Origin: Bacteriovoracia bacterium
GTDB lineage: Bacteria > Bdellovibrionota > UBA1018 > JBFWNL01
NCBI GenBank assembly: GCA_050251055.1
Contig: JBFWNL010000004.1
Location: forward strand, 192,001 to 256,000
Direction: 5' to 3'
Length of the DNA stretch: 64,000 bases
A program made the translations under genes and the position numbers. This document shows positions 29,884-50,981 of this stretch, one piece after another (position 1 is the first letter of the stretch; each line of letters begins with the position of its first letter). The notes under the pieces are model-generated. The model was not told where the DNA came from. It searched no databases and worked only from the letters and a program-made list of their open reading frames with translations.

Positions 29884-29903
29884 TACATCCATAGGGAACA
29901 AAA

Positions 29904-31214: not shown

Positions 31215-31218
31215 TGGT

Positions 31219-32211
31219 ATGAAACTTTTTACAAAGGTCATGATCCCGATGAGCGTCTTGTCGCTTGGTATTTTAAGCAGCTGCCAAAATTCTCAAAATA
31301 CAGATTCGAAGGCCGAACATCAGCATGCGCCTCAGACTTCAGCCATGGCAGAGCATTACACCTGCCCCATGCATCCCCATGTAAAAATGGATAAGCCAGG
31401 CTCGTGCCCGATCTGCCATATGCCTCTTGTGAAAGTGACTGGCTCGAATTCTGAGAACTCTGTATCTAAAGAAAATTCAAAACCTCGAATTAAATTCTAC
31501 CGGCATCCTATGAATCCAAGCATCACCTCCCCCGTACCCGCAAAAGACGATATGGGCATGGATTATATTCCGGTGTTCGAAAGCAGTGACGATAGCACCA
31601 GGCAAGATGGATCGATTGAAGGTCGATCTTCGGTGACATTAAATTCCAATCAATGGAAGGCCACAGGAACTCAGCTCATTGCTGTTCAAGCGAAAGATAT
31701 CGACTACGAGATCGAAGCTCCCGGACGGGCTCTTTCTTCCAGCCAAATTTCGATTCAAATCTTTGAACAAGATTTATCGTTGATAAAAAGAGGACTCAAA
31801 GTGAAGGCTAGAAGTCCGCTTTTGCCGGACCAAGAACTGGAAGGTCAGGTGACATCGATAGATTCGTTTCTTGATCCGATGACTCGAACCGCACGCGTCA
31901 ATGCAGTGTTGAAAAATTCTTCTCCTCTTCAATCCGAAAGTTCGCTTATTGCTCGGATCATCATCTCCCTTCCCAACCGACTCGTCATTCCAGAATCGGC
32001 CGTTCTTCATACTGGAAAACAAGATCTCGTCTTTGTTCAGGTAAGCGAAAACACGCTGAAGCCACGAGCGATCATTCTTGGCGTGAAATCAAAGGGCGAA
32101 TACGAAGTTTTAGCAGGCTTAAGTAAAGAAGAAAAAATCGCCACTGGGCCTAATTTTCTTCTCGATTCCGAAGCGCAAATTCGGGGTCTCGCCGAAGGCG
32201 AGCGAAAGTGA
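31219..32211 (+). CDS. cusB: CusB-like periplasmic adaptor with heavy-metal-binding domains
   Basis: Lipobox, YTCPMHP..CPICHM, FYRHPMNP..DDMGMD, IPESAV, FLLDSE. Confidence 0.88.
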   Translation: MKLFTKVMIPMSVLSLGILSSCQNSQNTDSKAEHQHAPQTSAMAEHYTCPMHPHVKMDKPGSCPICHMPLVKVTGSNSENSVSKENSKPRIKFYRHPMNPSITSPVPAKDDMGMDYIPVFESSDDSTRQDGSIEGRSSVTLNSNQWKATGTQLIAVQAKDIDYEIEAPGRALSSSQISIQIFEQDLSLIKRGLKVKARSPLLPDQELEGQVTSIDSFLDPMTRTARVNAVLKNSSPLQSESSLIARIIISLPNRLVIPESAVLHTGKQDLVFVQVSENTLKPRAIILGVKSKGEYEVLAGLSKEEKIATGPNFLLDSEAQIRGLAEGERK

Positions 32212-32217
32212 TCAGCC

Positions 32218-35200
32218 ATGATTCAAAAAATCATTAGGTTCTCTGCAGAAAATCGGCTCCTCGTAATTATTTTTACCGCGATTGCCTGCATCGGTGGCGT
32301 GCTTGCATTAAAGCATATTCCTATTGATGCGATTCCGGATCTTTCAGATACACAGGTCATTATCTATTCGAAATGGGACCGCTCACCGGATCTCGTTGAG
32401 AATCAGCTTACGTATCCCATTGTTTCAGGGCTTTTAGGAGCTCCCAAGATCAAAGCTATTCGCGGATTTTCTGATTTTGGATTCTCCTACGTCTATGTGA
32501 TTTTTGAGGATGGAACAGATCTCTATTGGGCCCGATCCCGAGTTTTAGAGTACCTCAATCAAATTATTCCGAAACTTCCAGAAGGAGCGGTCACCGAACT
32601 CGGGCCCGACGCCACGAGTGTCGGTTGGGTTTATCAATATGCCCTGATCGACAAATCCAGAAAAAGAGATGCTTCCGATTTAAGAACTCTGCAGGACTGG
32701 TCGCTTAAATTTCAACTCCAATCCGTGCCAGGTGTAGCCGAAGTGGCATCGGTCGGAGGGTTTCAAAAACAATACCAAGTTCAGGTGAATCCAACCAAAC
32801 TGCGCACCTTCCATGTGACCTTTGATCAAGTGATGAAAGCGGTCCGCGACTCCAATCAGGAAAGCGGAGGTCGCGTGATCGAATTTTCCGGCACGGAAGC
32901 AATGGTCCGAAGTCGGGGACTCATTTCCACGGTGGAAGATATTGAAAACACCGTTGTCGCTTACAATCCTCAAACGCGCGCTTCTGTTCTCGTCAAACAG
33001 GTCGCGCATGTTGCTCTTGGTCCTGAGATGCGACGAGGTGTAACCGATCTTAACGGCGAGGGTGACGCGGTGGGTGGTATCATTGTCATGCGCCACGGCG
33101 AAGACACGGTTTCGGTGATCGACCGCGTGAAACAAAAAATAGAAGAATTGAAACCGGGGTTACCCCACGGGGTGGAGGTCGTAACGGTGTATGATCGCTC
33201 GGATCTCATTCATCGTGCGATTAATACTCTCAAACATAGCCTCATTGAAGAACTGATTATTGTGAGCTTAGTCATTCTCTTTTTCCTCTGGCATTTTCCT
33301 TCGGCTTCCATTCCCATCATCACGATTCCGGTTTCCATTTTGCTCGCCTTCATTCCACTTTATTTCATGGGTATGACGGCCAACATCATGTCGTTAGCGG
33401 GTATTGCGATTTCGATTGGAGTGCTTGTCGATGGAGCAATTGTAGAAGTCGAAAATGCCTACAAGAAAATTCAGCACTGGGATCAAACGGGGAGAAAAGA
33501 AAGTTTTCATAAAGTCCGACTCGAAGCTTTATTGGAAGTCGGTCCTTCGGTTTTCTTTTCCCTGCTCGTCATCGCGGTGGCATTCCTCCCAATTTTTACC
33601 CTCGTCGATCAAGAGGGAAGGCTTTTTCGACCTCTCGCGTGGTCAAAGAATCTTACGATGGCCGTAGCCGCAATTCTTGCTATTACCTTAGATCCCGCAC
33701 TTCGTATGCTCTTTGCGCGCTTCGAACCTTTTCAGACGCGCTTTCGCTGGCTGAACCCTTTCCTGAACACCACACTCATTGGAAAATATTATGCCGAAGA
33801 AAAGCATCCGATCAGTCGAAGGCTGCATCGCCTCTATGAACCCGTTGTGCATTGGGTGCTTGCACGTCGAGGTTTGACTTTGGGTCTCGCAGCTCTGCTG
33901 ACGTTAACGACCGTTCCAGTCTATTTTCAATTGGGCCGAGAATTCATGCCGACCCTGCATGAAGGAAGTCTTCTTTATATGCCAACGGCTTTGCCTGGAA
34001 TGTCGATTCCAGAAGCAGCGCGTGTACTTCAAAAGCAAGATGAAATTTTAAAATCATTTCCTGAAGTGGAAACCGTTTTTGGGAAAGCCGGACGCGCCGA
34101 CACTTCGACCGATACAGCACCGGTCTCGATGGTCGAAACCACCATCATTCTTAAGCCAAAATCGGAATGGCGAAAAGTTGATCGCTGGTACTCCCGTCTT
34201 CCAGATATTCTTGAATTTCCATTCCGCCCCTTTTGGCCGGATCGCCTTGATGAGGAAATGCTCATTTCTGAAATGAATGAAAAACTTCAGTTTCCTGGGA
34301 TGCCCAATATCTGGACGATGCCTATTAAAAATCGCATCGATATGCTCTCTACCGGCATTCGAAGTGCTTTAGGTATTAAAATTTTTGGTCCTGATCTGAA
34401 GATAATTGAAACGATCGGGAAGAATATCGAAGAGGCGTTGAAAAATTCGTCTGGCGCACGGTCCGTGGTGGCTGAACGAGCTGCCAGTGGCTTTTTCTTG
34501 GATGTCGATTTCAACAGAACGGCTCTGTCAGCTTATGGTTTAAATCTTAAAGACGCGCAAGACCAGGCGATGGCTGCTATTGGAGGAGAGAATGTCTCGG
34601 TTTCACTTTCAGGACGCGAACGTTATCCGATCCAGGTACGCCTGGCGCGGGATTATCGAAATGACATTGAAACGATTAAAGCACTTTTCATTTCAACACC
34701 TTCCGGTGGAAGCATTCCCCTTTCAACGATTGCTGACATTCAAGTGAGACAAGGTCCGAGCATGGTACGAAATGAAAATGCCATGCCGGTTGGCTACGTT
34801 TTTGTTGATGTGGATCCCGCCAAAACGGACATCGGTAGTTTCGTCAAACGCGCCAAAGAAATTGTTCAAACGAAGGTTGAGCTGCCAGACGGCTACTTTC
34901 TTTCTTGGAGTGGACAATATGAAAATATGACACGGGTCAAAGACAGGTTGATGATCATTGTCCCACTCACTCTTTTGGTGATTGCTTTTCTCCTTTTTTT
35001 AAACACGCAGTCCTGGATCAAAGTGGGAATTGTGCTCCTGGCTGTTCCCTTTTCTTTGATTGGAGCGGTTTGGCTGCTCTGGCTTCTTGACTACAATCTT
35101 TCTATCGCGACGTGGGTCGGCATGATCGCGCTTATGGGTCTTGATGCCGAAACGGGTGTGTTTATGCTCCTCTACTTAGACCTGGCGTTTAATCGCCGAA

Positions 35201-35484
35201 AACAAGAAGGAAAGATGGCCACAAAACAGGATTTAACCGACTCCATTATTGAGGGAGCGGTCCATCGTCTTCGACCCAAGTTGATGACAGTGGCGGCAGC
35301 ATTTCTCGGTCTCTTTCCCATCATGTGGTCCACGGGAGCGGGCGCGGATGTGATGAAGCGAATTGCCGCCCCGATGATTGGGGGTCTGTCCACATCATTT
35401 CTACTCGAACTTCTGATCTATCCCGTCATTTTTTATATCTGGAAAATAAAACAAGAGCCAAAACTAAAAGTCGTTCGCCAATAA
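32218..35484 (+). CDS. cusA: CusA/SilA heavy-metal efflux RND transporter
   Basis: DAIPDLSDTQVII, LGPDATSVGWVYQY, MPIKNRIDMLSTG, RLRPKLMT, MKRIAAPMIGG. Confidence 0.95.
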   Translation: MIQKIIRFSAENRLLVIIFTAIACIGGVLALKHIPIDAIPDLSDTQVIIYSKWDRSPDLVENQLTYPIVSGLLGAPKIKAIRGFSDFGFSYVYVIFEDGTDLYWARSRVLEYLNQIIPKLPEGAVTELGPDATSVGWVYQYALIDKSRKRDASDLRTLQDWSLKFQLQSVPGVAEVASVGGFQKQYQVQVNPTKLRTFHVTFDQVMKAVRDSNQESGGRVIEFSGTEAMVRSRGLISTVEDIENTVVAYNPQTRASVLVKQVAHVALGPEMRRGVTDLNGEGDAVGGIIVMRHGEDTVSVIDRVKQKIEELKPGLPHGVEVVTVYDRSDLIHRAINTLKHSLIEELIIVSLVILFFLWHFPSASIPIITIPVSILLAFIPLYFMGMTANIMSLAGIAISIGVLVDGAIVEVENAYKKIQHWDQTGRKESFHKVRLEALLEVGPSVFFSLLVIAVAFLPIFTLVDQEGRLFRPLAWSKNLTMAVAAILAITLDPALRMLFARFEPFQTRFRWLNPFLNTTLIGKYYAEEKHPISRRLHRLYEPVVHWVLARRGLTLGLAALLTLTTVPVYFQLGREFMPTLHEGSLLYMPTALPGMSIPEAARVLQKQDEILKSFPEVETVFGKAGRADTSTDTAPVSMVETTIILKPKSEWRKVDRWYSRLPDILEFPFRPFWPDRLDEEMLISEMNEKLQFPGMPNIWTMPIKNRIDMLSTGIRSALGIKIFGPDLKIIETIGKNIEEALKNSSGARSVVAERAASGFFLDVDFNRTALSAYGLNLKDAQDQAMAAIGGENVSVSLSGRERYPIQVRLARDYRNDIETIKALFISTPSGGSIPLSTIADIQVRQGPSMVRNENAMPVGYVFVDVDPAKTDIGSFVKRAKEIVQTKVELPDGYFLSWSGQYENMTRVKDRLMIIVPLTLLVIAFLLFLNTQSWIKVGIVLLAVPFSLIGAVWLLWLLDYNLSIATWVGMIALMGLDAETGVFMLLYLDLAFNRRKQEGKMATKQDLTDSIIEGAVHRLRPKLMTVAAAFLGLFPIMWSTGAGADVMKRIAAPMIGGLSTSFLLELLIYPVIFYIWKIKQEPKLKVVRQ

Positions 35485-35724: not shown

Positions 35725-36492
35725 ATGGAAGGGAAACCGCTAACGGAGAACTGCAAACGTGTTTACGATTCGAAAGAGCATGTCTGTTTTGGCATCAGTC
35801 CCTTTAATAGCTATTTTTCCGAACGGCGTCTTCGCGACCTGGCGCATTGGGGACGCTCCCATTTCCAGTCGATGCATTTTTTTGTGCCAGATGTACCCGC
35901 CGCTTACACGCTTGAAGCTTTAGGCTACACGCCTGAGCGTGCCGCCTGGAAAGCTCGCCGCCAGGCAAATTGGCTAAGAAACAAAATTATCCGTTCCCTC
36001 ATCAGCCTCAGTTTCACTCACCACGAATCAGAAAAAATGGTCTTGGATTGGGAAAAACTAGTCAGCATTTCCCGGTTTCAAGAAATTTATAGGGAGATTC
36101 AAGGTCTTTTTCGTAAAGATTCCGCCTTTCGAGGTGCGTGTATCGAAGCTTCGCATTGGATTTTAGAAAAGCGAGTTGCGGATACTTTAGCTCTTACTGA
36201 TGAAGCTCTTTTACGAGCTGTTGAGTATTTTCTTGCCGAGATCCCCCTCTTCCTTGATGCAGCAAGCATTTTAAATCAAAAAGCATCGGTCTTCGCTTAC
36301 CACCAGAGTATTCCATTTCTCGAAAATCTTTATCGAAACCAGTTCTTCTGCCAGGTCCCATCCGAGCGACAGGGCTATGTCATTCTTGCGGCAAAAAAAG
36401 AAAATGAAATAAGGGACGCAAATTCACTTCACTTGCAGCCGCCTATCTCTGAATCAGGGAATTATGAAGTGTCTCTTCCATCTGAAGATTAG
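35725..36492 (+). CDS. tRNA-dependent cyclodipeptide synthase (NYH subfamily)
   Basis: HVCFGISPFNSYF (HxxxGISxxNxxF), YFLAEIP (YxxxExP), AYH; GGAGG RBS. Confidence 0.9.
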   Translation: MEGKPLTENCKRVYDSKEHVCFGISPFNSYFSERRLRDLAHWGRSHFQSMHFFVPDVPAAYTLEALGYTPERAAWKARRQANWLRNKIIRSLISLSFTHHESEKMVLDWEKLVSISRFQEIYREIQGLFRKDSAFRGACIEASHWILEKRVADTLALTDEALLRAVEYFLAEIPLFLDAASILNQKASVFAYHQSIPFLENLYRNQFFCQVPSERQGYVILAAKKENEIRDANSLHLQPPISESGNYEVSLPSED

Positions 36493-36727: not shown

Positions 36728-37081
36728 TCAAGCGGCGCGCCGCGTTTCCATCCGGCGGCAAGACTCTGCACATTTGCGACAGATATCGGCACAGCGCTGC
36801 ATTTCTTTGTCATCGGTGAATTTTGCGCAATCTTCAGCGCATGCATCACATAAACGCGTGCAAGTCCGGCAGGCATCCGCATAGAAATTTGAGTTGCGAA
36901 GCATAAAGTTCGCACTTGTTTGGCAAATCTCGGCACAATCCAATAAAAGACTAATGTGTTTCGTTTCAGCGTGACGTCCACCCTTATCGAGACAGTGCGG
37001 CAAAATTTCGTTACAAACCGCGTGGCAGCCAAGACAATTATCGATACATTCTTGAAAATCTTTTTGTGACATATGAGGCAT
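36728..37081 (-). CDS. four-helix-bundle copper storage protein (Csp3/DUF326)
   Basis: Repeated CxxxCxxC pattern (CIDNCLGCHAVC, DCAEIC, CRTC..LC.AC...C, RCADICRKCAESC); no signal peptide. Confidence 0.9.
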   Translation of the reverse strand: MPHMSQKDFQECIDNCLGCHAVCNEILPHCLDKGGRHAETKHISLLLDCAEICQTSANFMLRNSNFYADACRTCTRLCDACAEDCAKFTDDKEMQRCADICRKCAESCRRMETRRAA

Positions 37082-37159
37082 GGTTGATTCTCCTTTGATG
37101 GTTTCAAATAAATTTCAATTTTTTAGTGGGCCACGTATGGACCAGATCTCGCTGAGTGC

Positions 37160-37175
37160 TGCAATTTCAATACCA
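37160..37175 (-). promoter_or_regulatory. sigma-54 (-24/-12) promoter for csp3
   Basis: TGGTATTGAAATTGCA (GG-N10-GC) about 80 bp upstream of the start codon. Confidence 0.55.
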
Positions 37176-37350
37176 ATGTACTTCGTTGCCAACCAAATTT
37201 AATATTTTAAACTGACAATAAGAGCTAGATACCGACTTTGGTTAGTAAAGTTAGAGAAAATTAACCCAAAGCTTTTCTGAACGAAAACCTCAAATCAAAC
37301 AGCTCGGTGATGAGGACCCCACTCAAAAGTCCTTCTCCGATCCCATATTT

Positions 37351-39543
37351 TCAAAGTAAAGCGACTTTCTGTTTTTGCGCTTGTTCAACACTTCCTTGCG
37401 ATTCGAAGCATGCGATCACTTGATTGAGATCCTTCCGAACAATTCTTTCGATCCAGTACATTCCTTCGGGATACTGTTCTTTAAAATGCTGTTTTTCATA
37501 TCCCGTGTTTAAAACGATTCGTTTGAATCCATAATTGTCGTAAAGATCGCGCGCATGCTCTTCGCCCTTCTCACCAAACCGTAGACGAGAATCAACTACG
37601 ATGACTTTATTTTTATCGAGTAGATGAAGATGTTCTCGCATTTCAGCAAAACTTCGATAGAAAAGAAGATTCTTTTTCTTTTCGCGGGCTAATTTTCTGA
37701 GATGGATTACATGAAGGTCGTCGTCGTCAATTACAACTCCATCAAAAGGTTGCGAAACCTCTAAGCGATTCACCGAGAAATCTATTTTTTCAAGCAGGAT
37801 TTTCGGCAAAAGCTTGATTCCTTTTCGATCACATTCATCCAAGAGACGTGAATTACCATAATTATGAGTCAGAAGAATTGATCGCTTTTCTAAACCGAAG
37901 CGTTCAATCGTATCTGTTCCTGTAATTTTTGCATCGCCGAGATCATAGTCCATGAAGACAAAATCCGATTGAGGAAAATTTGTCTCTTTAGCCCATGATT
38001 GAAAGCCCTCAAGGTCATGGAAAACAGTAGTTTCTATTTTGGGCGCCTGTCTTTTAATAAGATCATCGACCTTCTTTGCGAACTCTCTATCGTTTTCGAC
38101 AATAATTACCCGATGAAATCCATTCAAGCTCGTCGTTCCAACAAAAGAGCGTCGTGGCGCGTATTCCAAAAAAGCCAGGCGAATGGTTGTTCCTAGCCCT
38201 TCTTTAGATTCAATAGAAAGCTCGCCATCATCTTTTCGGACAATTTCAATCGCTTTGCTAAGACCTTTGCCTCGTCCTGCTCCACCTTTCGTTGAAAATC
38301 CGTACTGCTTTACGTCCTCTAAGAGTCCTTCGGGAATTCCGCAACCGGTATCTTCAATGAATATAGCGGCCAAATCGTTCGTTCTTTTCGTTGAGAGAGT
38401 GACACTTCCAGTTTCTTGGATGGATTCAACTGCATTATTCACAAGATTGGAAATAGCGGTTCCAAGTTCAACGGGATCTACCTTCACAAAAAGCCCAAGA
38501 TCGCTGGCTAAAAAATCAAAATGAATTTGCAGCCGATCCTGATGGCTGTACTCAATAGCTTTCAGTTCAACAAGATGGGCGATAAAAGCATCGAGTTGCA
38601 AAACGAAACTGCGTTCGACTTCATCAAGGCTCTCGGCTCCTACTTTCTGGAGCTGCTGCATTTTGACAGAAATATCGCTCGCCGCTTTCTGAAGGATGAG
38701 AAGATCATCTTCACCGATTTTTGAGCGAAGATTTTGGATCGAATGGAGCAAAATGCTCGTGTAAGATTTCAAATCATGAGCCAGTTGAGCCGCAAGCTTT
38801 CCGCGTTCCTCTTCGACCGACTGATTTAAAAGAGCTGATTGCTGCCGTTCAATACGATCCTGAAGTAAATCGAATTTATCTTTAATACTTTTTGTTTCGA
38901 CGAGCCTTTCTGATTCATAAGCGATCTTACTGTTCGAGTCGTTTCGGTCGAAATGCTCAATATAGTCACGCAGGTTTTCCAGAGGTTGGCTGATTCTTCT
39001 AAGTACAGCTTTCAAACGAAGGAGGAGAATCAAAAATAGGGCGATTGAGATAATGAGAGTCGTAAAAAACGTGTACCTAATGACTTGTTCCCGGATTGAA
39101 TTTGGAAAAGCCACTTTCACCGTAAAGTTTTCGGGACGATCTGGATACACAGAGAAAACTGACTGTTGAACGACGTAAGGAGATAAAAGAACATCGAGAT
39201 AACCCGTTTCCTTTAAATCTCGAATATCTCCACTTGCAAGTTCGGAAACAACCAACGGTCGAATCGCGTCGCCCGTGATGGCAATAGAGAGAACATCAGA
39301 GGTTTCGAGCGTTTTCGAAAGAATACCTCGAATCTCAATTTCATCGCCGATTTGAATTTTGGGCTTAATGATGGCTACCAATTGTTGCGTAAGAAGCCTG
39401 ATTTTACTGTGCTCACTATTTGAAAAGGCAACCGTAAGCACGCATGCGATCAAAGGCACTACTAGAAGAATCGAATAAACGAGAATGCCAAAAGAGGAAG
39501 AGCGAAATAAAAGTTGAAGAGTTTGGTGTTTATCTTTTCTCAT
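37351..39543 (-). CDS. membrane hybrid sensor histidine kinase with two C-terminal receiver-like domains
   Basis: Two TM helices with a periplasmic loop; H-box LAHDLKS, N-box NLVNNA, DTGCGI, GKGL; receiver-like RVIIVEND..FMDYDL and VVIDDD..VVDSRL. Confidence 0.9.
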   Translation of the reverse strand: MRKDKHQTLQLLFRSSSFGILVYSILLVVPLIACVLTVAFSNSEHSKIRLLTQQLVAIIKPKIQIGDEIEIRGILSKTLETSDVLSIAITGDAIRPLVVSELASGDIRDLKETGYLDVLLSPYVVQQSVFSVYPDRPENFTVKVAFPNSIREQVIRYTFFTTLIISIALFLILLLRLKAVLRRISQPLENLRDYIEHFDRNDSNSKIAYESERLVETKSIKDKFDLLQDRIERQQSALLNQSVEEERGKLAAQLAHDLKSYTSILLHSIQNLRSKIGEDDLLILQKAASDISVKMQQLQKVGAESLDEVERSFVLQLDAFIAHLVELKAIEYSHQDRLQIHFDFLASDLGLFVKVDPVELGTAISNLVNNAVESIQETGSVTLSTKRTNDLAAIFIEDTGCGIPEGLLEDVKQYGFSTKGGAGRGKGLSKAIEIVRKDDGELSIESKEGLGTTIRLAFLEYAPRRSFVGTTSLNGFHRVIIVENDREFAKKVDDLIKRQAPKIETTVFHDLEGFQSWAKETNFPQSDFVFMDYDLGDAKITGTDTIERFGLEKRSILLTHNYGNSRLLDECDRKGIKLLPKILLEKIDFSVNRLEVSQPFDGVVIDDDDLHVIHLRKLAREKKKNLLFYRSFAEMREHLHLLDKNKVIVVDSRLRFGEKGEEHARDLYDNYGFKRIVLNTGYEKQHFKEQYPEGMYWIERIVRKDLNQVIACFESQGSVEQAQKQKVALL

Positions 39544-40838
39544 TTTATTTCCTTTGCCATAGCCAAAGGACGTTCCAGCGAAATCGTTACGAATGAAAAC
39601 AGAAGGGACAGTATAACAACGGATACAAATGCTTCTTTTATAGATGGAGCTCCGTTTCTAAGCGTACTGATATAAAGACTGTATAATCCGACCCAGAGAT
39701 AACCGGGAATATTTTGAAAACTTAAGGCAGTCGCATAGTCTTGTCGTTTTACTTCTCCCATCAATTGATTCATCGACATATTTTGAATTGCGGACGTAGC
39801 AGTATGAAACAATGCGCCAAAAACAAAAATATAAGTGATCTGCACAAATACCGGAGTGTTCCCATAAAGGGCCAAGTACCCAAGGCTCATAACAAGAGTG
39901 AGCCCATAAAAAATGAGAAGATACTGTCTTGGAGTTACACACCGAATGAGCACTGGCAATAAATGTCCTTTTAAAATCCATCCGAACGCCGAGTAGCCGA
40001 GCATAAATGCCGCCATGAACGACCACTGAATGAGTTCAGCGCTTTGGTTATGCTCTCGACCTAACGATAGGGGGAGATAGCCAGCAATTATGACAGTCAT
40101 CATCCAGAACGAAAGATTGTAGATCGTCGCAATTTTTGCGCGAGGTGCTAAAAAGGTCACTTTAAAAATGTCTTTAAGAGGCGACACATGGAGCTGTTTG
40201 TCGCGATCTCCGAGTTGAAGATAATCCCGCCACAACGTCACAATACACGAAGCGTAGAGAGCGATGCCTATGAGAAATGTATGAGGAAGCCACTGCTTCT
40301 GTTCGAACACCCATGCCAAAGCGAAAGCCGCGATAACAGCAATCGTCGTAAAATATTTTCCGTAGTTTTGACTCGTAGTCAAACTCGTTGCAGCTACCTT
40401 CTCGTGATCATCATTCAAGCAACGCACCTTTATCGCATCCTGGTAAAAGGCTTCAATGGAACCAGAGCTAAGGGGCTTTGCTATTCCAATGAGAATTCCA
40501 TGAGCAATGAAAAGAATTCGCGCCATCGCACCATCGAAAACAAGCGCTACATACACACAGGCGAGCCCACTCATCACGAGTAACAAACTCAAAATGATAG
40601 AAGGAATTCGTCCAATGCGATCAGATATATAACCGCAAGGAACCTCTAGTAAGCCATTCAGTGTGAATTCAATAAGAGTAACGAGAGCTACGGTGTCTGC
40701 GGGAACCCCAAAGGAAAGCGCGAGGACACCAACAATTACTCGAAACAAAACGGAGTTGAATTGTACCGCCGCTGCATAGAGCGCGCGAAAGACTCCGAGG
40801 CGAATCAAAATGTCATGCACTGACATTTCTTGTTTCAT
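39540..40838 (-). CDS. MFS transporter (putative peptide exporter)
   Basis: LEVPCGYISDRIGR MFS motif A, SGSIEAFYQD; about 12 TM helices. Confidence 0.85.
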   Translation of the reverse strand: MKQEMSVHDILIRLGVFRALYAAAVQFNSVLFRVIVGVLALSFGVPADTVALVTLIEFTLNGLLEVPCGYISDRIGRIPSIILSLLLVMSGLACVYVALVFDGAMARILFIAHGILIGIAKPLSSGSIEAFYQDAIKVRCLNDDHEKVAATSLTTSQNYGKYFTTIAVIAAFALAWVFEQKQWLPHTFLIGIALYASCIVTLWRDYLQLGDRDKQLHVSPLKDIFKVTFLAPRAKIATIYNLSFWMMTVIIAGYLPLSLGREHNQSAELIQWSFMAAFMLGYSAFGWILKGHLLPVLIRCVTPRQYLLIFYGLTLVMSLGYLALYGNTPVFVQITYIFVFGALFHTATSAIQNMSMNQLMGEVKRQDYATALSFQNIPGYLWVGLYSLYISTLRNGAPSIKEAFVSVVILSLLFSFVTISLERPLAMAKEIK

Positions 40839-41689
40839 CGTGCGCTCACCCTCGACGAAGGAGATTTCGAGTCTAACAACTCGTCTCGAATGATATGAAT
40901 AATGTCTGTGATATGCTCATCAAACCTGAGAAGGCCGCGCCCGCAAATAGTTTCGTAATCTTTTTGGAAAGTCGACGTGAATCTTTCAAGAATTCGATAA
41001 GCGCCTTGGTCATACTTTCGATCAATCTTCTTACTTCTTAAAATTCGAAGAGCTAAGCCAAGCATACACGCTTGAGCAAAGGCACCATGATAAATGCCAA
41101 TCAGGGGTCGATCAATATCCCGAATCGCAGAGTATCTTGTTTCATCCCAAGGCTGGTCAAAGATTTCTTGCTCGTCGTGCGTGGTAATTACGATGTTTAA
41201 ATAATGATGTCCAAGCTCATGGACTAAAATTTCAGCCCACTTTACGGGGCAATCACTATCCATCCGATAGAGAATTTGGCCAAACGTTTGTGGATCTGAA
41301 GCAGATTCGAAGGGATCATCTATTGTGGTCTGCGCCAAACGAGGCTGAATGGCTTTAACAATTTTAAAGTATTCAGGCCACGTAGACGCGATCAGACTGA
41401 TTGCTTCCTGATAGATTTTTTCTTTTTCCGAGTAGATTTCACTTTCATGAGATCGGAAAATATCATTTCCAGTGACTAGCTTCCTGCGCTTTTGATCACG
41501 CAAGAATAGCTCACCCCACTGTTTAGATCTATTGAGATCTTCAGCCGAAAAATAACACGAGGACACAATCGGTAGACTTAATTTCGAAAGGTCTATTTTT
41601 GAAATTTCTGGCCGGGAAGAGAGAATCGCACGAACTCCCTCTTCCCGCAGAAACTCGACATAGGAACTGATCATTCCCAAGTCAAACAT
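40835..41689 (-). CDS. aKG-HExxH peptide-modifying enzyme
   Basis: EILVHELGHHYL plus downstream YSAIRDIDRPLIGIYHGAF; probable start ATG 41689 after the peptide ORF. Confidence 0.82.
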   Translation of the reverse strand: MFDLGMISSYVEFLREEGVRAILSSRPEISKIDLSKLSLPIVSSCYFSAEDLNRSKQWGELFLRDQKRRKLVTGNDIFRSHESEIYSEKEKIYQEAISLIASTWPEYFKIVKAIQPRLAQTTIDDPFESASDPQTFGQILYRMDSDCPVKWAEILVHELGHHYLNIVITTHDEQEIFDQPWDETRYSAIRDIDRPLIGIYHGAFAQACMLGLALRILRSKKIDRKYDQGAYRILERFTSTFQKDYETICGRGLLRFDEHITDIIHIIRDELLDSKSPSSRVSAR

Positions 41690-41700
41690 CTTCGAAACTC

Positions 41701-41778
41701 TTAGTAACTTGCGCGAGCTTCGCCGATTAGTTTGTTCCTGAGAATCGCGAGATTGAACGAGCGCTTTCTGTTTTTCAT
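41701..41778 (-). CDS. 25-aa putative precursor/pheromone peptide MKNRKRSFNLAILRNKLIGEARASY
   Basis: Read manually: AAAGGAGG RBS 8 nt before ATG 41778, TAA at 41701-41703, 11 nt before the HExxH start. Confidence 0.75.
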   Translation of the reverse strand: MKNRKRSFNLAILRNKLIGEARASY

Positions 41779-41811
41779 GGCTTTTGCCTCCTTTCATTTG
41801 ATTGACGTTTT

Positions 41812-43308
41812 TCATTTACGCACCAGATTCGCAATTTGAACGTCCTGGTACGAAAAGTCCCAAAACTTCACACTCATATTTTCCGAGTTCTTCACGGATA
41901 GCCCTCGGCGGTACCAGGTGGTGAACACGGGATAGAACAAAGGAATCGCAGGAATATCTGCAAAGAAAGTATCTTCCATTTGGTGTAGCACTCTGAGCTG
42001 GTGATCTTTCGCCGTTTGGTTCTCATAATCAATGAGCAAACGATTGAGCGTAGGACTGTAATAGCCAGAAAACTTTTCAATTATTCTTCCGAGGTAGCCA
42101 TCAAAGGTCGTAGATGGGTCAAAATTAATCGGAGAATCACCTTTCAGGATCATATGGAGATGACCCTCGCGAAATCCGCGAAGTACATCGTTAAATGGTA
42201 GAAACTGAACCTGGAGGTTTAGGCCGATGTCTTTGAACCGACCAACAAGGTATTTTTCAACCGCCATGTTCCCTTTAAATTTTTCTCGCGCGCCTAAAAC
42301 GACATTGCGTTCTTGAAGCGTCGTATTTTTTTCGATTAAAGCTCTCGCCATTTCAAGATCGATAAGATGACGTTTCTCGCGATGGCCCACATATCCACGC
42401 GGAATCATGCCGCCAGCGGGAATATCTTCTCCTCCTGCATATTCATGGAAAGCAATCGGATCGATGACGCTTGCGACAGCAAGCCGATTTTCCTTTTTCC
42501 GAAATATGCCGTGTTTGAAAGAAAAGACTAGAGCGTAAGTTCCAGCAATTTTCTGACTGTAAGAAAGTCCTTTCGGTAAAACCGATCGATTAACCTGTGA
42601 TTCAACGTCCGTAATCGTATCGAGCTCTTCCTTCAAGAACTTATTGATGGCTGTTTCAGAGTCTAATTTTTGGTAAATGATCTTTTGGAACTTCGCTCGC
42701 GCATCAAATCGTTCAGCGATGATTTGATCATCTCCAATTCGCACGATCTTGTAAGGACCGGTTCCCAAATAGTTCCCGTCCATCTTTTTAACGATGCAGC
42801 CCTTAGCGCTTGCCAATTTTTTCATTAGCAAAGGATAGTTCTTATTTTGAATCCGAATAACAAATCGAGAGTCATCGAGTGTTTGAAATCCATCACATGA
42901 TGTGCGTTGTATGCAGCCCCCAAGAGCCTTGAATTGTGAAAGGATTTCGTTTTTGTTTTTGAAAGCTTCAAGAATTGAATTTAGGACGTCTTGCGATCGA
43001 ACTGGAGAACCGTCATGAAACCGCTTGTTTCTATCAATCTCGAATTCAATCTCATTCGTCTCACGGCGAATTGTCCAACGAGAAGCAACCTCGGGGATGG
43101 GCGAAAGACTTTCATCCACGCCAACCAGGTGCTCAAATACATTATCAATCACCTTATTCGCATTGATTTCGTTCCCGCGCTTAAGCTCAAGATCGGGAAT
43201 CGCCGTAATCGGCACTCTAAGTACCGTGTTCGATGACACGGAATCGTTTTCCTGCGTACAGGCAGAAAATATTCCTATTGCTAAAGAAAAAAACAGAAGT
43301 AAGCGCAT
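41812..43308 (-). CDS. family-5 (oligopeptide-type) solute-binding lipoprotein, no cognate permease
   Basis: Lipobox FSAC, VFEHLV, FHDGSPVRSQDV, GTGPYKI, IPAIPLFY. Confidence 0.88.
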   Translation of the reverse strand: MRLLLFFSLAIGIFSACTQENDSVSSNTVLRVPITAIPDLELKRGNEINANKVIDNVFEHLVGVDESLSPIPEVASRWTIRRETNEIEFEIDRNKRFHDGSPVRSQDVLNSILEAFKNKNEILSQFKALGGCIQRTSCDGFQTLDDSRFVIRIQNKNYPLLMKKLASAKGCIVKKMDGNYLGTGPYKIVRIGDDQIIAERFDARAKFQKIIYQKLDSETAINKFLKEELDTITDVESQVNRSVLPKGLSYSQKIAGTYALVFSFKHGIFRKKENRLAVASVIDPIAFHEYAGGEDIPAGGMIPRGYVGHREKRHLIDLEMARALIEKNTTLQERNVVLGAREKFKGNMAVEKYLVGRFKDIGLNLQVQFLPFNDVLRGFREGHLHMILKGDSPINFDPSTTFDGYLGRIIEKFSGYYSPTLNRLLIDYENQTAKDHQLRVLHQMEDTFFADIPAIPLFYPVFTTWYRRGLSVKNSENMSVKFWDFSYQDVQIANLVRK

Positions 43309-43311
43309 AAG

Positions 43312-43530
43312 TTATTCGCCCACCTCTTTGAAATTACATTTGAGTTGACCCCACTTTTCCAAAAGCTGATCGCCTCGACGGCAGGCGAGATTGAGTACAG
43401 TTTCACAATACTCAGGATCGTTGGTTAAGTTGGCACGAACCTGCTCAATCGTTGAAATAATGGAATGAAGATCAGCTTGAAAATCATGAATCATGTCTTC
43501 TGCTGAGAGTTTATTTTTCGCCATCATCAC
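43312..43530 (-). CDS. small stand-alone HisKA/DHp-like protein
   Basis: MIHDFQADLHSII resembles the H-box LAHDLKSYTSIL of the kinase in this operon; coupled to the RR gene. Confidence 0.55.
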   Translation of the reverse strand: MMMAKNKLSAEDMIHDFQADLHSIISTIEQVRANLTNDPEYCETVLNLACRRGDQLLEKWGQLKCNFKEVGE

Positions 43531-44897
43531 AACTCGGCCTCCTTCAATTCATCGAGAAGACTGGTAACCTTCTTTTGTGAATAACCTAAGTGCCGCATGA
43601 GAGGACGAATGGGACGATCCTTCCCAAGCTTTCTCCGGAAATGATCTGCAACTTCTTTCTCCAGTTCAGCGAGAAACGCTTTAAGACCAACCTCTTCGAC
43701 GTACTTGATCTGTCGTTCGGTCAGGAGATTGTAAGCATGCTTGCCCGGATATGAGTTTGTTGCAATTTTATGAGGAAGATCTTCAACAGAAAATACAGGC
43801 TTTTTTGTTTTCGCTTTGGACTTCCAAAATTCAAAAAATTCTCTCTCGTTACCCGGCCAATCGTATTCGAGCAGCGCTTTCTTAGCACTTGGTCGGATCG
43901 CCATTCCACGGCCTTCTCCAAAATTCTTCTGCACATGATTAAGGAGAAGTTCAATATCCTGGCGACGTTCTTTGAGCGGTTTGAACTTTACCGTGACCCC
44001 CGAGATGCGATTAAAGAAATCTTCACGAAATTGTTTAGCAGAAATTTTTTCGTGTAATTCTTCGCATGTCGCCGTGATGAGCTTGAAATCAGAATAAAGT
44101 CGCTCGTTTGATCCAACAGGTGAGAAATGTCCGTTTGCCAATGGAACAAGAAGAGTGTGTTGCATACGAGTGCCAATCGTTCCGATTTCGTCAATAAAGA
44201 GCGTTCCTTGATCAGCCTGCGCAATTTTTCCGATTCGCTTTTTATGTGCTCCCGTGAAAGCGCCGTCGACATGCCCAAGCAATTCGGATTGCAGCAATGT
44301 ATCGGACAAACTATTCGCGTTGATTTCGACAAAGCGATCCTTATGACCGTGCCATCCTTCATGCAATATTTCGGCTAAAACGCTTTTGCCTACGCCGGAA
44401 GGACCCGTGATGAGAATAGGTAACTTTTTAATTCCCATGCTCTCGACAAGAATATCAAACTGCTGAAGATGATCGGGGTCTTGGGTAATCATCTTTTGAG
44501 CAATGAGTTTACGAAGTCTCGTCTTCTGTGATGAACCACGATAGTTCAAAAGAATTTCATCAACGGCTGTGGCCTTAAAAGGTTTCGTTAAATAGTCATC
44601 GCATTCTTTTCCGTATCCTTCTTCCACATAAGCTTCTTCGCGATGGCCCGAAAGAATAACGCTGTAAACGCCCTTCTTCTTGAGAAGCGGAATCAGATCG
44701 AAACCGGCTCTTCGTTCATCGAGATCAAGATCAACGAACGAAAGATCGAACTGTCCGTTTGAAATTTTGTCGAGAGCCTGAGCCTTGGAGGCAGCCTGTT
44801 GAATTTCGTGACCTTGATTAGAAAGCTGCTTCGCAAGATTGTGTCGATGCAGATCATCATCTTCGACAACTAAAATTTTTAACGACGATTGTTTCAC
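43527..44897 (-). CDS. sigma-54-dependent response regulator (NtrC-family enhancer-binding protein)
   Basis: Receiver ILVVEDD..FVDLDL..KPF; Walker A GPSGVGKS; GAFTGA loop; LFIDEIG; FREDFFNRI; WPGN. Confidence 0.93.
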   Translation of the reverse strand: MKQSSLKILVVEDDDLHRHNLAKQLSNQGHEIQQAASKAQALDKISNGQFDLSFVDLDLDERRAGFDLIPLLKKKGVYSVILSGHREEAYVEEGYGKECDDYLTKPFKATAVDEILLNYRGSSQKTRLRKLIAQKMITQDPDHLQQFDILVESMGIKKLPILITGPSGVGKSVLAEILHEGWHGHKDRFVEINANSLSDTLLQSELLGHVDGAFTGAHKKRIGKIAQADQGTLFIDEIGTIGTRMQHTLLVPLANGHFSPVGSNERLYSDFKLITATCEELHEKISAKQFREDFFNRISGVTVKFKPLKERRQDIELLLNHVQKNFGEGRGMAIRPSAKKALLEYDWPGNEREFFEFWKSKAKTKKPVFSVEDLPHKIATNSYPGKHAYNLLTERQIKYVEEVGLKAFLAELEKEVADHFRRKLGKDRPIRPLMRHLGYSQKKVTSLLDELKEAEL

Positions 44898-44958
44898 TAC
44901 TCAGACACTCCAAACTTTCGATTACGCGTAGCACAAAATTTTTAGTCTCCAAAATAAA

Positions 44959-44992
44959 TTCGTATCACTACACGTATTACTAGTGATACGAA
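44959..44992. promoter_or_regulatory. perfect 12-bp inverted repeat, candidate enhancer (UAS) for the sigma-54 activator
   Basis: TTCGTATCACTA-N10-TAGTGATACGAA, about 110-140 bp upstream of the sigma-54 site. Confidence 0.65.
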
Positions 44993-45099
44993 ATCGAGCA
45001 TCCGCAAACCCGCATTCTATCTGACTCAGAGAAGACAAGATCATGAATCTACAGACTTTTTAAGAAGTTGTGGCTTCGACCAGCATCACTTTTCTTGCT

Positions 45100-45115
45100 C
45101 GGCATAAAAAATGCG
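45100..45115 (+). promoter_or_regulatory. sigma-54 (-24/-12) promoter facing the transfer region
   Basis: CGGCATAAAAAATGCG: GG at 45101-2, GC at 45113-4, 10-nt spacer; 45 bp before ATG 45160. Confidence 0.65.
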
Positions 45116-45159
45116 ATTGACTCCCTTTGTGTCGAAAAAAATCAAAAGGAGTAAGAGCA

Positions 45160-45369
45160 ATGGAACTTCAATACGGACAAACCAAAAATCAGAACCAGAT
45201 CAAGAAACCCTCGGACATTTTCAAACACTGTCCTCACTGCAAAAGTCGCGACCAATTTCGATTTGATGGCGAAGTCTTTTGCAATTCGTGCGGATGGAAC
45301 AGTGTCCTTGTGAGTGCGGAGTGTTCCTACGGTGTCGCTTCTCGAATGAGAAAGCCACTTCCATCATAA
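45160..45369 (+). CDS. small zinc-ribbon protein
   Basis: CPHC...CNSCGW; AAGGAG RBS. Confidence 0.65.
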   Translation: MELQYGQTKNQNQIKKPSDIFKHCPHCKSRDQFRFDGEVFCNSCGWNSVLVSAECSYGVASRMRKPLPS

Positions 45370-45384
45370 GCCGCACGCACTTCA

Positions 45385-45424
45385 CCTTTCACTAAATAGG
45401 GAAAACAACAGTCAGTACAGACAG
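45385..45424 (-). promoter_or_regulatory. conserved motif, copy A (faces the signalling operon)
   Basis: Minus strand reads CTGTCTGTACTGACTG-TTGTTTT-CCCTATTTAGTGAAAGG, nearly identical to copy B. Confidence 0.55.
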
Positions 45425-45451
45425 TGGTCATCAGACCTAAGGAGCTAATGC

Positions 45452-45988
45452 GTGAAAAATAATGATCAATTTCATAACTCGAAAATAAACCAAACAGACA
45501 TTCCATGGAAAGACGCGAACGGAAATCTAAAACCAGATAAAGAAATTAAAAAAATGGCAGCCCAGTGGAAAGCGTCTACTTGGGAGGCTTTTTTGGCAGA
45601 CACTGGAATGTCAGAAAACATTGGAAGTGATACTGAAAACGAAGTTTTGATAGCAGATACTGCGGGCTACGAAAGATTTTCTGCGGATGAATCCCTTAGC
45701 AGTCTTTTATCCGACATCGAATCTTTCCCAAGAGTCGCGAAAAGCTTAAAGAAAGCAATCTCGAAACTTTCTCCTCGGCAAAAGGAACTCGTCGGGCTGT
45801 ATTATTGGGAAGGTCTCTCACAGATGCAAATTGCTGCCACTCTTGGGATCACCCAGCAGACAGTAAGCATCCAACTCGTCCGAGCCATTCAGAGACTGCG
45901 CATCGAGATATTTCTCGGAATCAAATCTGACTCGCCGGCGCCTGAAAAATCTCAATCCGAGCATTCTGTCTGTATGCAAATTGGATAA
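45452..45988 (+). CDS. sigma-70 region-4 domain regulator
   Basis: AISKLSPRQKELVGLYYWEGLSQMQIAATLGITQQTVSIQLVRAIQRLR; no region 2 recognised. Confidence 0.85.
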   Translation: MKNNDQFHNSKINQTDIPWKDANGNLKPDKEIKKMAAQWKASTWEAFLADTGMSENIGSDTENEVLIADTAGYERFSADESLSSLLSDIESFPRVAKSLKKAISKLSPRQKELVGLYYWEGLSQMQIAATLGITQQTVSIQLVRAIQRLRIEIFLGIKSDSPAPEKSQSEHSVCMQIG

Positions 45989-46264: not shown

Positions 46265-46648
46265 GTGCGGATGTCTTTACCCTGGGCGGAGGAGATCGCA
46301 ACAGACCCCAGAAAAATCCAAGAGCTGATCGAAAATAAAGCTTTGGAAGATTGGTATTCAGAACATTCAGGAGAGTCAAAAGTGCGGAAAGTCGACGATT
46401 CTACATTCAGTTTCCTTTCGAATGAAAAACGCAGAATTCGAAAATTCATTTCCAAGCTTTCGGATGTGGAGCAAGTCATCGTGTATTTACGCTATTGGGA
46501 AAATCTCATGACGATCGAAATCGCATCCGTTGTAGGACTTTCTGAAAATAAAATTCATGACCTTTTAGAGCGTGCCATAAAGAAACTTAGAATTTTTTAC
46601 ATTCAGGAATTGAGCAGAGTGCAAGCCACAGCGCTTGCCTGCGTATGA
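46265..46648 (+). CDS. second sigma-70 region-4 domain protein
   Basis: LSDVEQVIVYLRYWENLMTIEIASVVGLSENKIHDLLERAIKKLR. Confidence 0.8.
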   Translation: MRMSLPWAEEIATDPRKIQELIENKALEDWYSEHSGESKVRKVDDSTFSFLSNEKRRIRKFISKLSDVEQVIVYLRYWENLMTIEIASVVGLSENKIHDLLERAIKKLRIFYIQELSRVQATALACV

Positions 46649-47077: not shown

Positions 47078-47380
47078 ATGACCAAGTCCACATACGGTTG
47101 GGTTTTTATGATCGGATTTATCGGAATGCTTTCACTGATGCTCTTAAGTGAGCCTGCGATGGCGTTTGGCTTTGAAAGTAAAATGCAAAATCTCACAGGC
47201 CAGCTCATCAATACGGTGCTGCCTTTAATGTCGATTCTAGGTCTTGTGTACGCAGCGATTCTCGCGCTTTCGGGCGATGCCGCTGCCAAAGCAAAAATCA
47301 TTACGGTGATCGCTGTCTCTGTGGTCGGGTTTCTCGCTCCCGCCATCATTCAGTGGTTACAACGCGCGACGGGTAACTAA
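47078..47380 (+). CDS. VirB2/TrbC-like pilin
   Basis: Signal peptide ending PAMA, two hydrophobic helices, position before virB3/virB4. Confidence 0.75.
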   Translation: MTKSTYGWVFMIGFIGMLSLMLLSEPAMAFGFESKMQNLTGQLINTVLPLMSILGLVYAAILALSGDAAAKAKIITVIAVSVVGFLAPAIIQWLQRATGN

Positions 47381-47698
47381 ATGGAAGAACTTCGTAGTTC
47401 GACAATTCATCGAAATCTCGATTCCAAAATCAAGATCGTGGGCATGGAGGTCCACGATCTCCTTTTGGTTTTGATTTTAGCAGCGACCATGAATCTTCTT
47501 TTTGGAAGAACGAGTTTCGCTTTTATTTTTGTGATCGTTCTTCCAGGAATTTTGGGACTCACACTTTATTTTGTGAAACGAAATAAGCCCGAAGGCTTTT
47601 TATCAGACTACGTTCGCTATCATCTTTCGCCCGGTTGGTTTTCGGCAGGAATGAATGTCAAAGATTTCGAAACTAGACCAAGGAAAATTTATTCATGA
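47381..47698 (+). CDS. VirB3-like membrane protein
   Basis: IHRNLDSKIKIVGME, two TM helices, KRNKPEGFL; position. Confidence 0.7.
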   Translation: MEELRSSTIHRNLDSKIKIVGMEVHDLLLVLILAATMNLLFGRTSFAFIFVIVLPGILGLTLYFVKRNKPEGFLSDYVRYHLSPGWFSAGMNVKDFETRPRKIYS

Positions 47699-47868
47699 AC
47701 GAAATGATTCCAACGAAATTTAAGTTCGATGGTTTGAAAACAAAGTGCTTCGAGATCCTTTCCTTTGTGCCCATCGTGCTTTGTTTTCTAGGTTGGCTCG
47801 CTCTCGTCATCGGCTTCTTTATGGAGGCCTCGAAATTCGTAGAACTTCAGCAGGGACTTCCGCGATGA
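47695..47868 (+). CDS. 57-aa single-TM protein between virB3 and virB4
   Basis: Read manually: MNEMIPTKFKFDGLKTKCFEILSFVPIVLCFLGWLALVIGFFMEASKFVELQQGLPR; ATGA overlaps at both ends. Confidence 0.6.
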   Translation: MNEMIPTKFKFDGLKTKCFEILSFVPIVLCFLGWLALVIGFFMEASKFVELQQGLPR

Positions 47869-50297: not shown

Positions 50298-50979
50298 AAA
50301 ATTTATGGTGGGAGTGGTGACGGTACTTTCTTTAAGTATTGTCAGCCGCCCTGTTCGCGCCGATCTCTTTGGTGGCGACGTGGCGGTGCTGACACAAATC
50401 TTGGCGCAGAATATTAAACATTATTACCAGTTTCAGCAGATGATTTCGGAAGCACGCGGACAGCGCGACTTTTGGAGGTTACTGAATGCCGGGATCGATA
50501 ATCTCTCAGGCTTAATGATGGTCATGCCCATTAAGGATCAAAAACTTCTCGAAGAACTCACGACGTTTAAGTCCGCCATGAAAAGAGTGGAAGTGCTCTA
50601 TGGAACCATTCCTGTGAGCGCGGAAGCGCCTCTTCAACTTCTTCATGATCAAACAGTTGCGGAAAGCATCAAACTTACAAATGATTCGAAGGACTATGCG
50701 GATAAGCAAGAACAAAATGCGGTGCGCATTATTGCAGAAACGCGAGGGGCGAGCCCCAAAGGGGCTGCTCGAATTTCGGCCCAAGCGAATGCGGAGATTT
50801 TACATACACTCAATCAACTTTTGAAACTGAATGGTCAAATGCTGAAGCTCCAAAGTGAGCAGCTCGCGGTCAGAAACAAAGAAGAGAAGGATTCGGTTCG
50901 CCACTTTAAACGTGTGCAAGCCGATGTCGGCCATTCTGCATCCACCTACCGAGCGGATCTTGGTTTTCCTAAGTTTTAA
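50263..50979 (+). CDS. VirB5/TrbJ-like exported protein (true start may be slightly downstream)
   Basis: Signal peptide then ADLFGGDVAVLTQIL; helical/coiled-coil; position. Confidence 0.6.
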   Translation: MPTNEGNIFINKKFMVGVVTVLSLSIVSRPVRADLFGGDVAVLTQILAQNIKHYYQFQQMISEARGQRDFWRLLNAGIDNLSGLMMVMPIKDQKLLEELTTFKSAMKRVEVLYGTIPVSAEAPLQLLHDQTVAESIKLTNDSKDYADKQEQNAVRIIAETRGASPKGAARISAQANAEILHTLNQLLKLNGQMLKLQSEQLAVRNKEEKDSVRHFKRVQADVGHSASTYRADLGFPKF

Positions 50980-50981
50980 AT

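Follow-up and report, generated by a model that had tools for sequence, protein, structure and literature searches.

A candidate peptide quorum-sensing circuit with an HExxH enzyme, divergent from the transfer genes of a predicted integrative and conjugative element in Bdellovibrionota

Peptide pheromones that gate conjugation are textbook knowledge for Firmicutes, and Gram-negative elements are known to use acyl-homoserine lactones or stress signals. In the RapI/PhrI system of ICEBs1 and the cCF10/iCF10 system of pCF10, transfer of the mobile element is governed by a small secreted peptide of its own; these peptides carry no modification, enter the cell through Opp and have their receptors in the cytoplasm. 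In the case of TraR/TraI of the Ti plasmid and ICEMlSymR7A, quorum sensing gates Gram-negative conjugation through an acyl-homoserine lactone and a LuxR-type receptor, with no peptide, sigma-54 or kinase. Here, a 64,000-nucleotide stretch from a Bacteriovoracia bacterium (contig JBFWNL010000004.1, positions 192,001 to 256,000; the window, whose own numbering is used below) was analysed. It holds nearly all of a predicted integrative and conjugative element (ICE), in which a minus-strand operon of seven genes (37351-44897) lies divergent from the transfer genes. The operon reads as a candidate quorum-sensing circuit, in which a ribosomal peptide would be tailored by an alpha-ketoglutarate HExxH (aKG-HExxH) enzyme, exported, captured by a periplasmic solute-binding protein (SBP) and reported through a hybrid kinase to a sigma-54 activator of transfer. 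To our knowledge, no cell-to-cell communication has been established in Bdellovibrionota.

The likeness to LuxP/LuxQ-LuxU-LuxO lies in the set of parts: a binding-protein co-receptor, a hybrid kinase, a small His-phosphotransfer protein, a sigma-54 regulator and a sigma-54 promoter. In the Vibrio system the co-receptor is periplasmic, the signal is autoinducer-2 and the output is the Qrr RNAs. Unlike there, the signal here would be a modified ribosomal peptide, the binding protein belongs to family 5 (oligopeptide type), the relay candidate is a 72-aa hairpin without a match to Hpt and the output would be ICE transfer. An earlier sequence-only reading of this DNA had called the system LuxP/LuxQ-like; the analogy of wiring stands but homology does not, the LuxO model giving the activator 149 bits against a cut-off of 800 and the SBP being of another family. 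AioX-AioS-AioR also joins a periplasmic SBP and a kinase to a sigma-54 activator, and its ligand is arsenite, an environmental oxyanion and not a self-made peptide, with no known link to the transfer of a mobile element. Unlike in the Firmicutes systems, sensing here would be periplasmic, through a transporter-less SBP and a two-component phosphorelay in a diderm host.

On the biosynthetic side, the clusters of ribosomally made peptides that are modified after translation (RiPPs) with ChlBH, BpmH, PflC/PosC and PesO likewise set an aKG-HExxH enzyme beside a short precursor and a transporter. The available text of the two papers on them describes further tailoring enzymes (radical S-adenosylmethionine enzymes and multinuclear non-haem iron-dependent oxidative enzymes) and long leader peptides, and mentions no sensing system (PMC12636437, PMC13060819). 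Unlike in these clusters, the HExxH protein is here the sole tailoring enzyme, the peptide is 22-32 aa long, and genes for an SBP and a kinase always accompany it. Full-text searches, with subscription journals mostly outside their coverage, found no description of this architecture, in line with the sequence-only reading, and the literature found on HExxH RiPP enzymes was biosynthetic work only. What is new is the predicted combination of parts and the host group; peptide quorum control of conjugation is itself known.

The seven open reading frames (ORFs) of the operon are all present at the positions first noted, and their junctions are 4-base overlaps or gaps of 3, 33 and 11 bases, so that the description of a tightly coupled operon holds. 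Profile matches likewise upheld the family calls made for the sigma-54 regulator with GAFTGA, the SBP_bac_5 protein, the aKG-HExxH enzyme, the major facilitator superfamily (MFS) protein and the hybrid kinase. Scans of 36900-45500 for sigma-70 promoters and terminators gave no excess over shuffled sequence, and the promoter of the peptide operon was not located by them.

Ten distinct loci with the 5' flank of the HExxH gene were compared: the window, L039 (genome G027), L001 (G096), L002 (G010), L037 (G113), L038 (G056), L003, L006, L007 and L040 (G353). Duplicates were merged, L005 and L008 being the same place as L002, and L010 the same as L003. In nine of the ten, an ORF of 22-32 aa with its own Shine-Dalgarno sequence lies directly upstream of the HExxH gene; the 2-kb contig of L007 contains no peptide ORF. 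In the window this is the 25-aa precursor MKNRKRSFNLAILRNKLIGEARASY (41701-41778, minus strand), preceded by its own GGAGG. A core common to the nine peptides, F[ND]L.I...[ND]..[IL]GE.R, is followed by a short variable tail, which a conserved xR[AGV]S precedes. L, E and R are invariant across all nine, and S is invariant in the eight that align but is replaced by K in L040. Among four close loci, the variable nucleotide columns at codon positions 1, 2 and 3 number 2, 2 and 11, and such variation mainly at third positions is the signature of selection on the protein. In a six-frame translation of the 3.77-Mb genome, the peptide pattern was matched only once, at the 41701-41778 ORF. It was widened after L040 had been seen, and the L040 match is therefore not independent; in 22 loci of more distant HExxH homologues (L015-L036) it had no match. 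Neither the peptides nor the hairpin had a meaningful Pfam match at E ≤ 10, and the ESM Atlas yielded no usable match for the hairpin or the peptide. The expectation of a conserved peptide ORF was confirmed by its recurrence upstream of the HExxH gene, the shared core and the third-position variation, and on these sequence patterns the 25-aa ORF is a real, conserved gene under coding constraint. A class I lanthipeptide precursor was considered and rejected, as the seven operon genes include no LanB/LanC family member and the peptide has no Cys; the likeness of its FNL(D) to the FNLD leader box of that class is a resemblance only.

The enzyme encoded next to the peptide scores 58.4 bits against TIGR04267 (IPR026337; cut-off 40, E = 8.8e-16). 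Its HELGH motif (H199, E200 and H203) is invariant in 15 sequences, as are H243 and R236. The AlphaFold2 model has a predicted local distance difference test (pLDDT) score of 86, and its best Foldseek match is to chains of the ChlBH HExxH domain structure 8s5f (E = 1.3e-6, template modelling score 0.59-0.60), which the profile also reaches by sequence (E = 0.0019). The longest frame, 40835-41815, would encode 326 aa and overlaps the peptide ORF in another frame. This start at 41815, taken over in the sequence-only reading, was rejected: the 42-residue N-terminal extension is absent in all 14 aligned homologues, which begin at or near residue 43 of the long frame, most of them at that Met, and the 42 residues of the extension are modelled at pLDDT 36-63 compared with >86 for the rest. 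The gene start was therefore corrected to 41689 (284 aa, 40835-41689, minus strand), and the peptide ORF is consequently free-standing. An apparent break in the HExxH gene of L039 was also rejected as a mutation, since the run of 100 N (about 10580-10680) is a gap in the record. Relatives of the enzyme are few, with 17 clusters at E ≤ 0.001 in a collection of 5.8 billion proteins and 33 clusters at E ≤ 1e-30 among 1.84 billion representatives; PLSDB plasmids and IMG/VR contigs contain no relative. The gene directly after it, in every locus examined, encodes an MFS transporter (432 aa, 39540-40838, minus strand; MFS_1, 1.6e-12), the presumed peptide exporter.

In the available text on this family, aKG-HExxH enzymes act on RiPP precursors by hydroxylating them (PMC12636437), and the characterised members are described as hydroxylating His, Asp, Phe, Gln and Pro (PMC13060819). 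PflC and PosC are there reported also to cleave the backbone oxidatively at a C-terminal ARMD, leaving an amide (PMC12636437). The most likely candidate sites of modification in the present peptides are the two universal Asn/Asp positions of the core, one in F-N-L and the other an N/D four residues before the G of GE. Oxidative trimming is a speculative alternative, suggested by the loose resemblance of xR[AGV]S to ARMD. We consider it likely that the peptide is the substrate of the enzyme and is exported.

The SBP (498 aa, 41812-43308, minus strand) matches SBP_bac_5 (1e-31) and has a lipobox, which marks it as a predicted periplasmic lipoprotein, and the operon holds no ABC transporter partner genes for it. 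The membrane hybrid kinase (730 aa, 37351-39543, minus strand) has two transmembrane segments flanking a periplasmic stretch of ~115 aa, an H-box (AHDLKS) and an ATPase domain (HATPase_c, 2.2e-15), and then two receiver-like stretches. An Hpt domain is absent. Alignment with five homologues shows that every one of the five loci with the activator gene (the window, L039, L001, L002 and L037) retains the second receiver-like domain, and that the first is missing in L037.

The gene order in the five activator loci is activator, hairpin, SBP, peptide, HExxH, MFS, kinase. In L038, the order is SBP, peptide, HExxH, MFS, a non-hybrid kinase and a further MFS gene, with genes for secreted proteases near, and in L040 it is peptide, HExxH, MFS, amidohydrolase, SBP_bac_5 and kinase, with overlapping junctions. 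Thus, adjacent peptide, HExxH and MFS genes occur in the same operon as an SBP_bac_5 and a kinase gene in three different arrangements and at identities as low as about 25%. That five functions have been kept together through rearrangement is what chiefly argues for the reading of the operon's own peptide by its SBP and kinase. It is an argument from neighbourhood and not a demonstration, and on its strength we lean, with modest confidence, towards peptide sensing by the SBP and kinase. When the L002 SBP was modelled in complex with the 32-aa peptide of that locus, the prediction lent no support (score 0.02, mark 0.32), which is evidence neither way. Separately, the amidohydrolase of the L040 cassette (9750-11036 of its 16-kb contig) is possibly a processing enzyme, and a second HExxH-kinase pair is found at the cut left end of that contig (42-2728).

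Between the SBP and activator genes lies the gene of the 72-aa hairpin (43312-43530, minus strand), a candidate phosphotransfer protein resembling the dimerisation and histidine phosphotransfer (DHp) domain of kinases. Its predicted fold consists of two helices (pLDDT 84), and its family is tiny, with 9 clusters. The motif LLHDFQSxLHxIL contains H21, present in 11 of 11 sequences, and H14, present in 10 of 11. When the hairpin profile was compared by hhalign with the DHp of the operon's own kinase, a P of 0.005 was obtained with the HD motif aligned on the H-box, against P values of 0.3-0.5 for three control segments. Among the weak Foldseek rows are kinase DHp domains as well as TraM and designed helical bundles. 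Each of the five activator loci has the hairpin, and the two loci lacking the activator do not. The likeness to the kinase DHp is weak but specific, and these observations incline us, somewhat beyond an even chance, to a His-phosphotransfer role; an anti-activator that binds the regulator is the alternative. The helical hairpin, the invariant His and the weak specific likeness to DHp speak for the sequence-only description of a DHp-like microprotein.

The sigma-54-dependent response regulator (456 aa, 43527-44897, minus strand) has a receiver (Response_reg, 1.3e-17) and an AAA+ domain (Sigma54_activat, 1.5e-46) with GAFTGA. In all five loci where it occurs, at identities from 85% down to 33%, it is divergent from genes for a Zn-ribbon protein, one or two sigma-70 region 4 proteins, VirB2 and VirB4. 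In the window, a palindrome with two arms of 12 nt (44959-44970 and 44981-44992) that are 100% complementary lies between the two operons; it is the presumed binding site of the activator, with a core GTAT-N8-ATAC at 44974-44989. Its 18-bp core occurs once in the window, where 0.01 is expected. GTAT-N8-ATACG has three matches in the window against 0.17 expected, two of them being the palindrome on both strands; the other match, at 56507-56523, overlies the start codon of a gene for a lipoprotein, together with its ribosome-binding site, and was set aside as probably chance.

The element CGGCATaaaaaATGCG at 45100-45115 (plus strand) is of the sigma-54 -24/-12 type, and the palindrome centre lies 120 bp from it. 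Elements of the form GG-N10-GC face the transfer genes in four of the five activator loci, each downstream of a GTAT-N8-ATAC palindrome (N9 in L002), and they match the 11 consensus positions at 7 (window), 9 (L039), 10 (L002), and 10 and 11 (the two sites of L001). The distance from palindrome centre to GG is 120, 120, 120.5 and 119 bp in these four loci, and 229 bp at the extra L001 site. Half-sites of the palindrome differ among loci while the GTAT...ATAC frame is constant. L039 contains exactly one GTAT-N8-ATAC in 20 kb and L001 exactly two in 20.8 kb, all of them the sites described. An equally loose search of the window for sigma-54 elements returned 31 matches against 23.9 expected, which is not above chance; the window site is supported because its position and spacing are conserved in related loci. 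The genome has rpoN, and no sigma-54 site pointing into the peptide operon was found. The divergence from the transfer region, proposed from the window alone, is met again in all relatives with the activator gene, and the sigma-54 site with its upstream palindrome in all of these but L037. It is likely that the activator controls the divergent promoter.

Some neighbouring features of these regions are recorded here. In L001, a 453-aa gene of no known family (5078-6467) is inserted between the activator and Zn-ribbon genes, and the extra L001 site, a perfect sigma-54 element with a further copy of the palindrome 229 bp upstream, belongs to it. In L037, three adjacent tyrosine recombinase genes (4883-7807), a recombinase-in-trio element, lie between the sigma-like gene and the remaining transfer operon; the type IV secretion genes are there about 6 kb off, behind the inserted trio, and only the sigma-like gene is adjacent. 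In the window, a further sigma-54-like site, TGGTATtgaaaTTGCA (37160-37175, minus strand, 9 of 11 positions), closely follows the kinase gene downstream and precedes an ORF (36728-37081, minus strand) for a 117-aa protein with a Cys-rich DUF326 repeat, which has no counterpart in the other loci compared.

The genes, their families, the conserved peptide, the neighbourhoods and the promoter layout are observed. From these we infer the following course of events after translation of the 25-aa peptide, which has a ribosome-binding site to itself. The aKG-HExxH enzyme would oxidise the peptide, most likely by beta-hydroxylation at one conserved Asn/Asp, and the MFS protein would send it out. The periplasmic lipoprotein SBP would capture it and set the activity of the membrane kinase, from whose His phosphate would pass to the kinase's own receiver, then to the hairpin His and then to the receiver of the activator. 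Acting on the GTAT-N8-ATAC palindrome, the activator would open the sigma-54 promoter 120 bp off, and this promoter would drive the Zn-ribbon and sigma-like proteins, by which the type IV secretion genes would be turned on. The Zn-ribbon protein (69 aa, 45160-45369, plus strand) is encoded by the first gene past the sigma-54 site, and is followed by an ECF-like (extracytoplasmic function-like) sigma-70 region 4 protein (178 aa, 45452-45988, plus strand), the presumed second tier of the cascade, and a second sigma-70 region 4 protein (127 aa, 46265-46648, plus strand). We consider a self-contained peptide circuit wired to the head of the ICE transfer operon to be slightly favoured, an estimate which is not a product of those for the components, since the components are not independent. 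That the whole constitutes an undescribed form of Gram-negative quorum sensing, in which an HExxH-tailored ribosomal peptide acts through a transporter-less SBP and hybrid kinase, a DHp-like hairpin and a sigma-54 activator on the transfer decision of an ICE in Bdellovibrionota, with a portable core cassette that also serves other outputs in these predatory bacteria, is put at an even chance.

Several observations weigh against this circuit. Modification, export and capture by the SBP, as well as the sign of control, are deduced from sequence. Neither a leader nor a cleavage site can be recognised in the peptide, and it lacks a protease partner. For the hairpin, Pfam and the family models contain no match, Hpt and HisKA included; Foldseek returned nothing for it at E ≤ 0.001, with a non-specific best E of 0.28, its profile match to DHp has a probability of 7% by hhalign, and the L037 hairpin lacks the first His. 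The last 77 residues of the activator, where a C-terminal helix-turn-helix would lie, match only HTH_36 and HTH_28 at E = 0.11-0.14, below threshold. The window's own sigma-54 site is weak at 7 of 11 positions, and L037 has no canonical site, its best candidate having GT at -12 and its palindrome reading ATAT-N8-ATAC. The comparison set is small, as about ten loci exist and several are closely related, and no RNA run containing the stretch was found, only three DNA runs of one landfill-metagenome study, two of which may be its source. Lastly, L038 and L040 have neither an activator nor transfer genes nearby, and there the cassette can serve other outputs. The cassette is therefore portable, the ICE version being one use of it, and the conjugation link belongs to one branch and not to the whole cassette family. 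The proposed linkage of such operons to conjugation modules accordingly stands for the five activator loci, all of which adjoin transfer genes, but does not extend to these two.

The same parts could also work with the opposite sign. The peptide would then report neighbours that carry the element, the peptide-bound SBP would put the kinase into phosphatase mode and transfer would be off, so that transfer would occur mainly when donors are surrounded by element-free cells, as with PhrI of ICEBs1. The wiring of SBP, hybrid kinase, small phosphotransfer protein and sigma-54 activator is that of LuxPQ-LuxU-LuxO, where the ligand lowers phosphorylation and autoinducers switch LuxQ to phosphatase mode, and the absence of a sigma-54 site into the peptide operon leaves no sign of positive feedback. 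Against this, most SBP-assisted kinases, such as TorT/TorS, ChvE/VirA and AioX/AioS, are activated by their ligand, and the sequence does not fix the sign. We regard this inverted control as unlikely among the readings overall, yet where only the sign is at issue, more peptide giving more transfer is favoured only slightly over the inverse.

The operon might instead house two functions, the SBP and kinase sensing an outside cue, e.g., peptides of prey or neighbours, and the peptide, HExxH and MFS genes making a separate secreted product, such as a metal-binding or antimicrobial hydroxylated peptide. Peptide and SBP are tied by gene neighbourhood, the cores of the distant peptides are rich in Asp and His (DIHxD), both of which can bind metals when hydroxylated, and the island also bears Cus-like and MerA-like metal genes. 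Nevertheless, the five functions stay together through the three gene orders down to about 25% identity, the peptide cores of the ICE type have lost Asp and His residues, and the operon has no metallophore receptor or uptake genes, which together make such a division of labour improbable. A nisin-like autoinduction, where the kinase and activator mainly control production of a peptide with another primary role and the transfer genes are not their target, could draw on the palindrome between the divergent operons, which could serve both. The conserved GG-N10-GC sites nevertheless all face transfer genes and none the peptide operon, synteny with transfer genes is kept in five of five activator loci, and cassettes without the activator still retain peptide genes; we hold this explanation to be very improbable.

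The surrounding island is about 59.5 kb long with ~44% GC in a genome of 57.8% GC. Its right end abuts tRNA-Ser(GCT) (59491-59581, minus strand), where GC climbs from 0.44 to 0.55-0.64, and its left end lies about 40 bases before the start of the window and carries the TGGCGGA repeat of the tRNA end. Inverted arms of 14 nt (AACAACGGACGAAC) together with the TGGCGGA repeat are present at both ends. The frame of the large serine recombinase (57708-59546, plus strand) continues about 55 bases into the tRNA-Ser gene, and its C-terminus would therefore change on excision. The transfer genes (47078-56316, all on the plus strand) encode a VirB2-like pilin (47078-47380), VirB4 (47745-50297), a weak TrbL/VirB6-like protein (50982-51842), a TrbI/VirB10-like protein (53157-54107), an FtsK/SpoIIIE-type coupling ATPase (54104-55567) and a Replic_Relax-like relaxase candidate (55564-56316), the last at 20.4 bits, below the Pfam cut-off of 25.3. 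VirB2-like, VirB4 and TrbI proteins, the FtsK/SpoIIIE-type ATPase, an integrase and bounded ends, all features of an ICE, are thus present. Contigs of the three metagenome runs, compared with 55000-64000, show only that these assemblies are interrupted at the tRNA. Close HExxH orthologues (E ≤ 1e-35) were found in 7 of 401 phylum genomes sampled, from four families, and in 3 of 14 genomes of the order to which the L002 genome (G010) belongs, a patchy spread which fits a mobile element. With the tRNA-Ser, the large serine recombinase, the GC break and the transfer genes, the ICE reading of the sequence-only analysis is supported, and the island is, by prediction, a bounded ICE-like element.

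Other contents of the island were also recorded. A candidate origin of transfer, made up of clustered CTGTAG repeats and inverted repeats (56330-56405), immediately follows the relaxase-like gene. The cargo region 23041-35484 encodes a fusion of a VTT domain with a pyridine-nucleotide-disulphide reductase (MerA-like) and an OEP/HlyD/AcrB set with a heavy-metal-binding domain (a Cus-like resistance-nodulation-division pump). Past the kinase gene, at a distance of about 860 bp from its end, lies a cyclodipeptide synthase gene (35725-36492, plus strand; CDPS, 3.1e-63), possibly the source of a second small-molecule product of the same element; it has no counterpart in the related loci compared.

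If the proposed circuit is correct, a diderm mobile element would use a periplasmic SBP and a sigma-54 phosphorelay to transmit a RiPP-type signal, and among Gram-negative elements this manner of timing their spread would be unusual. With seven genes and one promoter, the system is small and directly testable in a heterologous host. A minimal stand-alone DHp-like relay protein would join the parts list of two-component systems, and the large and poorly understood aKG-HExxH family would gain a signalling role beside its roles in natural products. For Bdellovibrionota, the finding would point to cell-to-cell communication.

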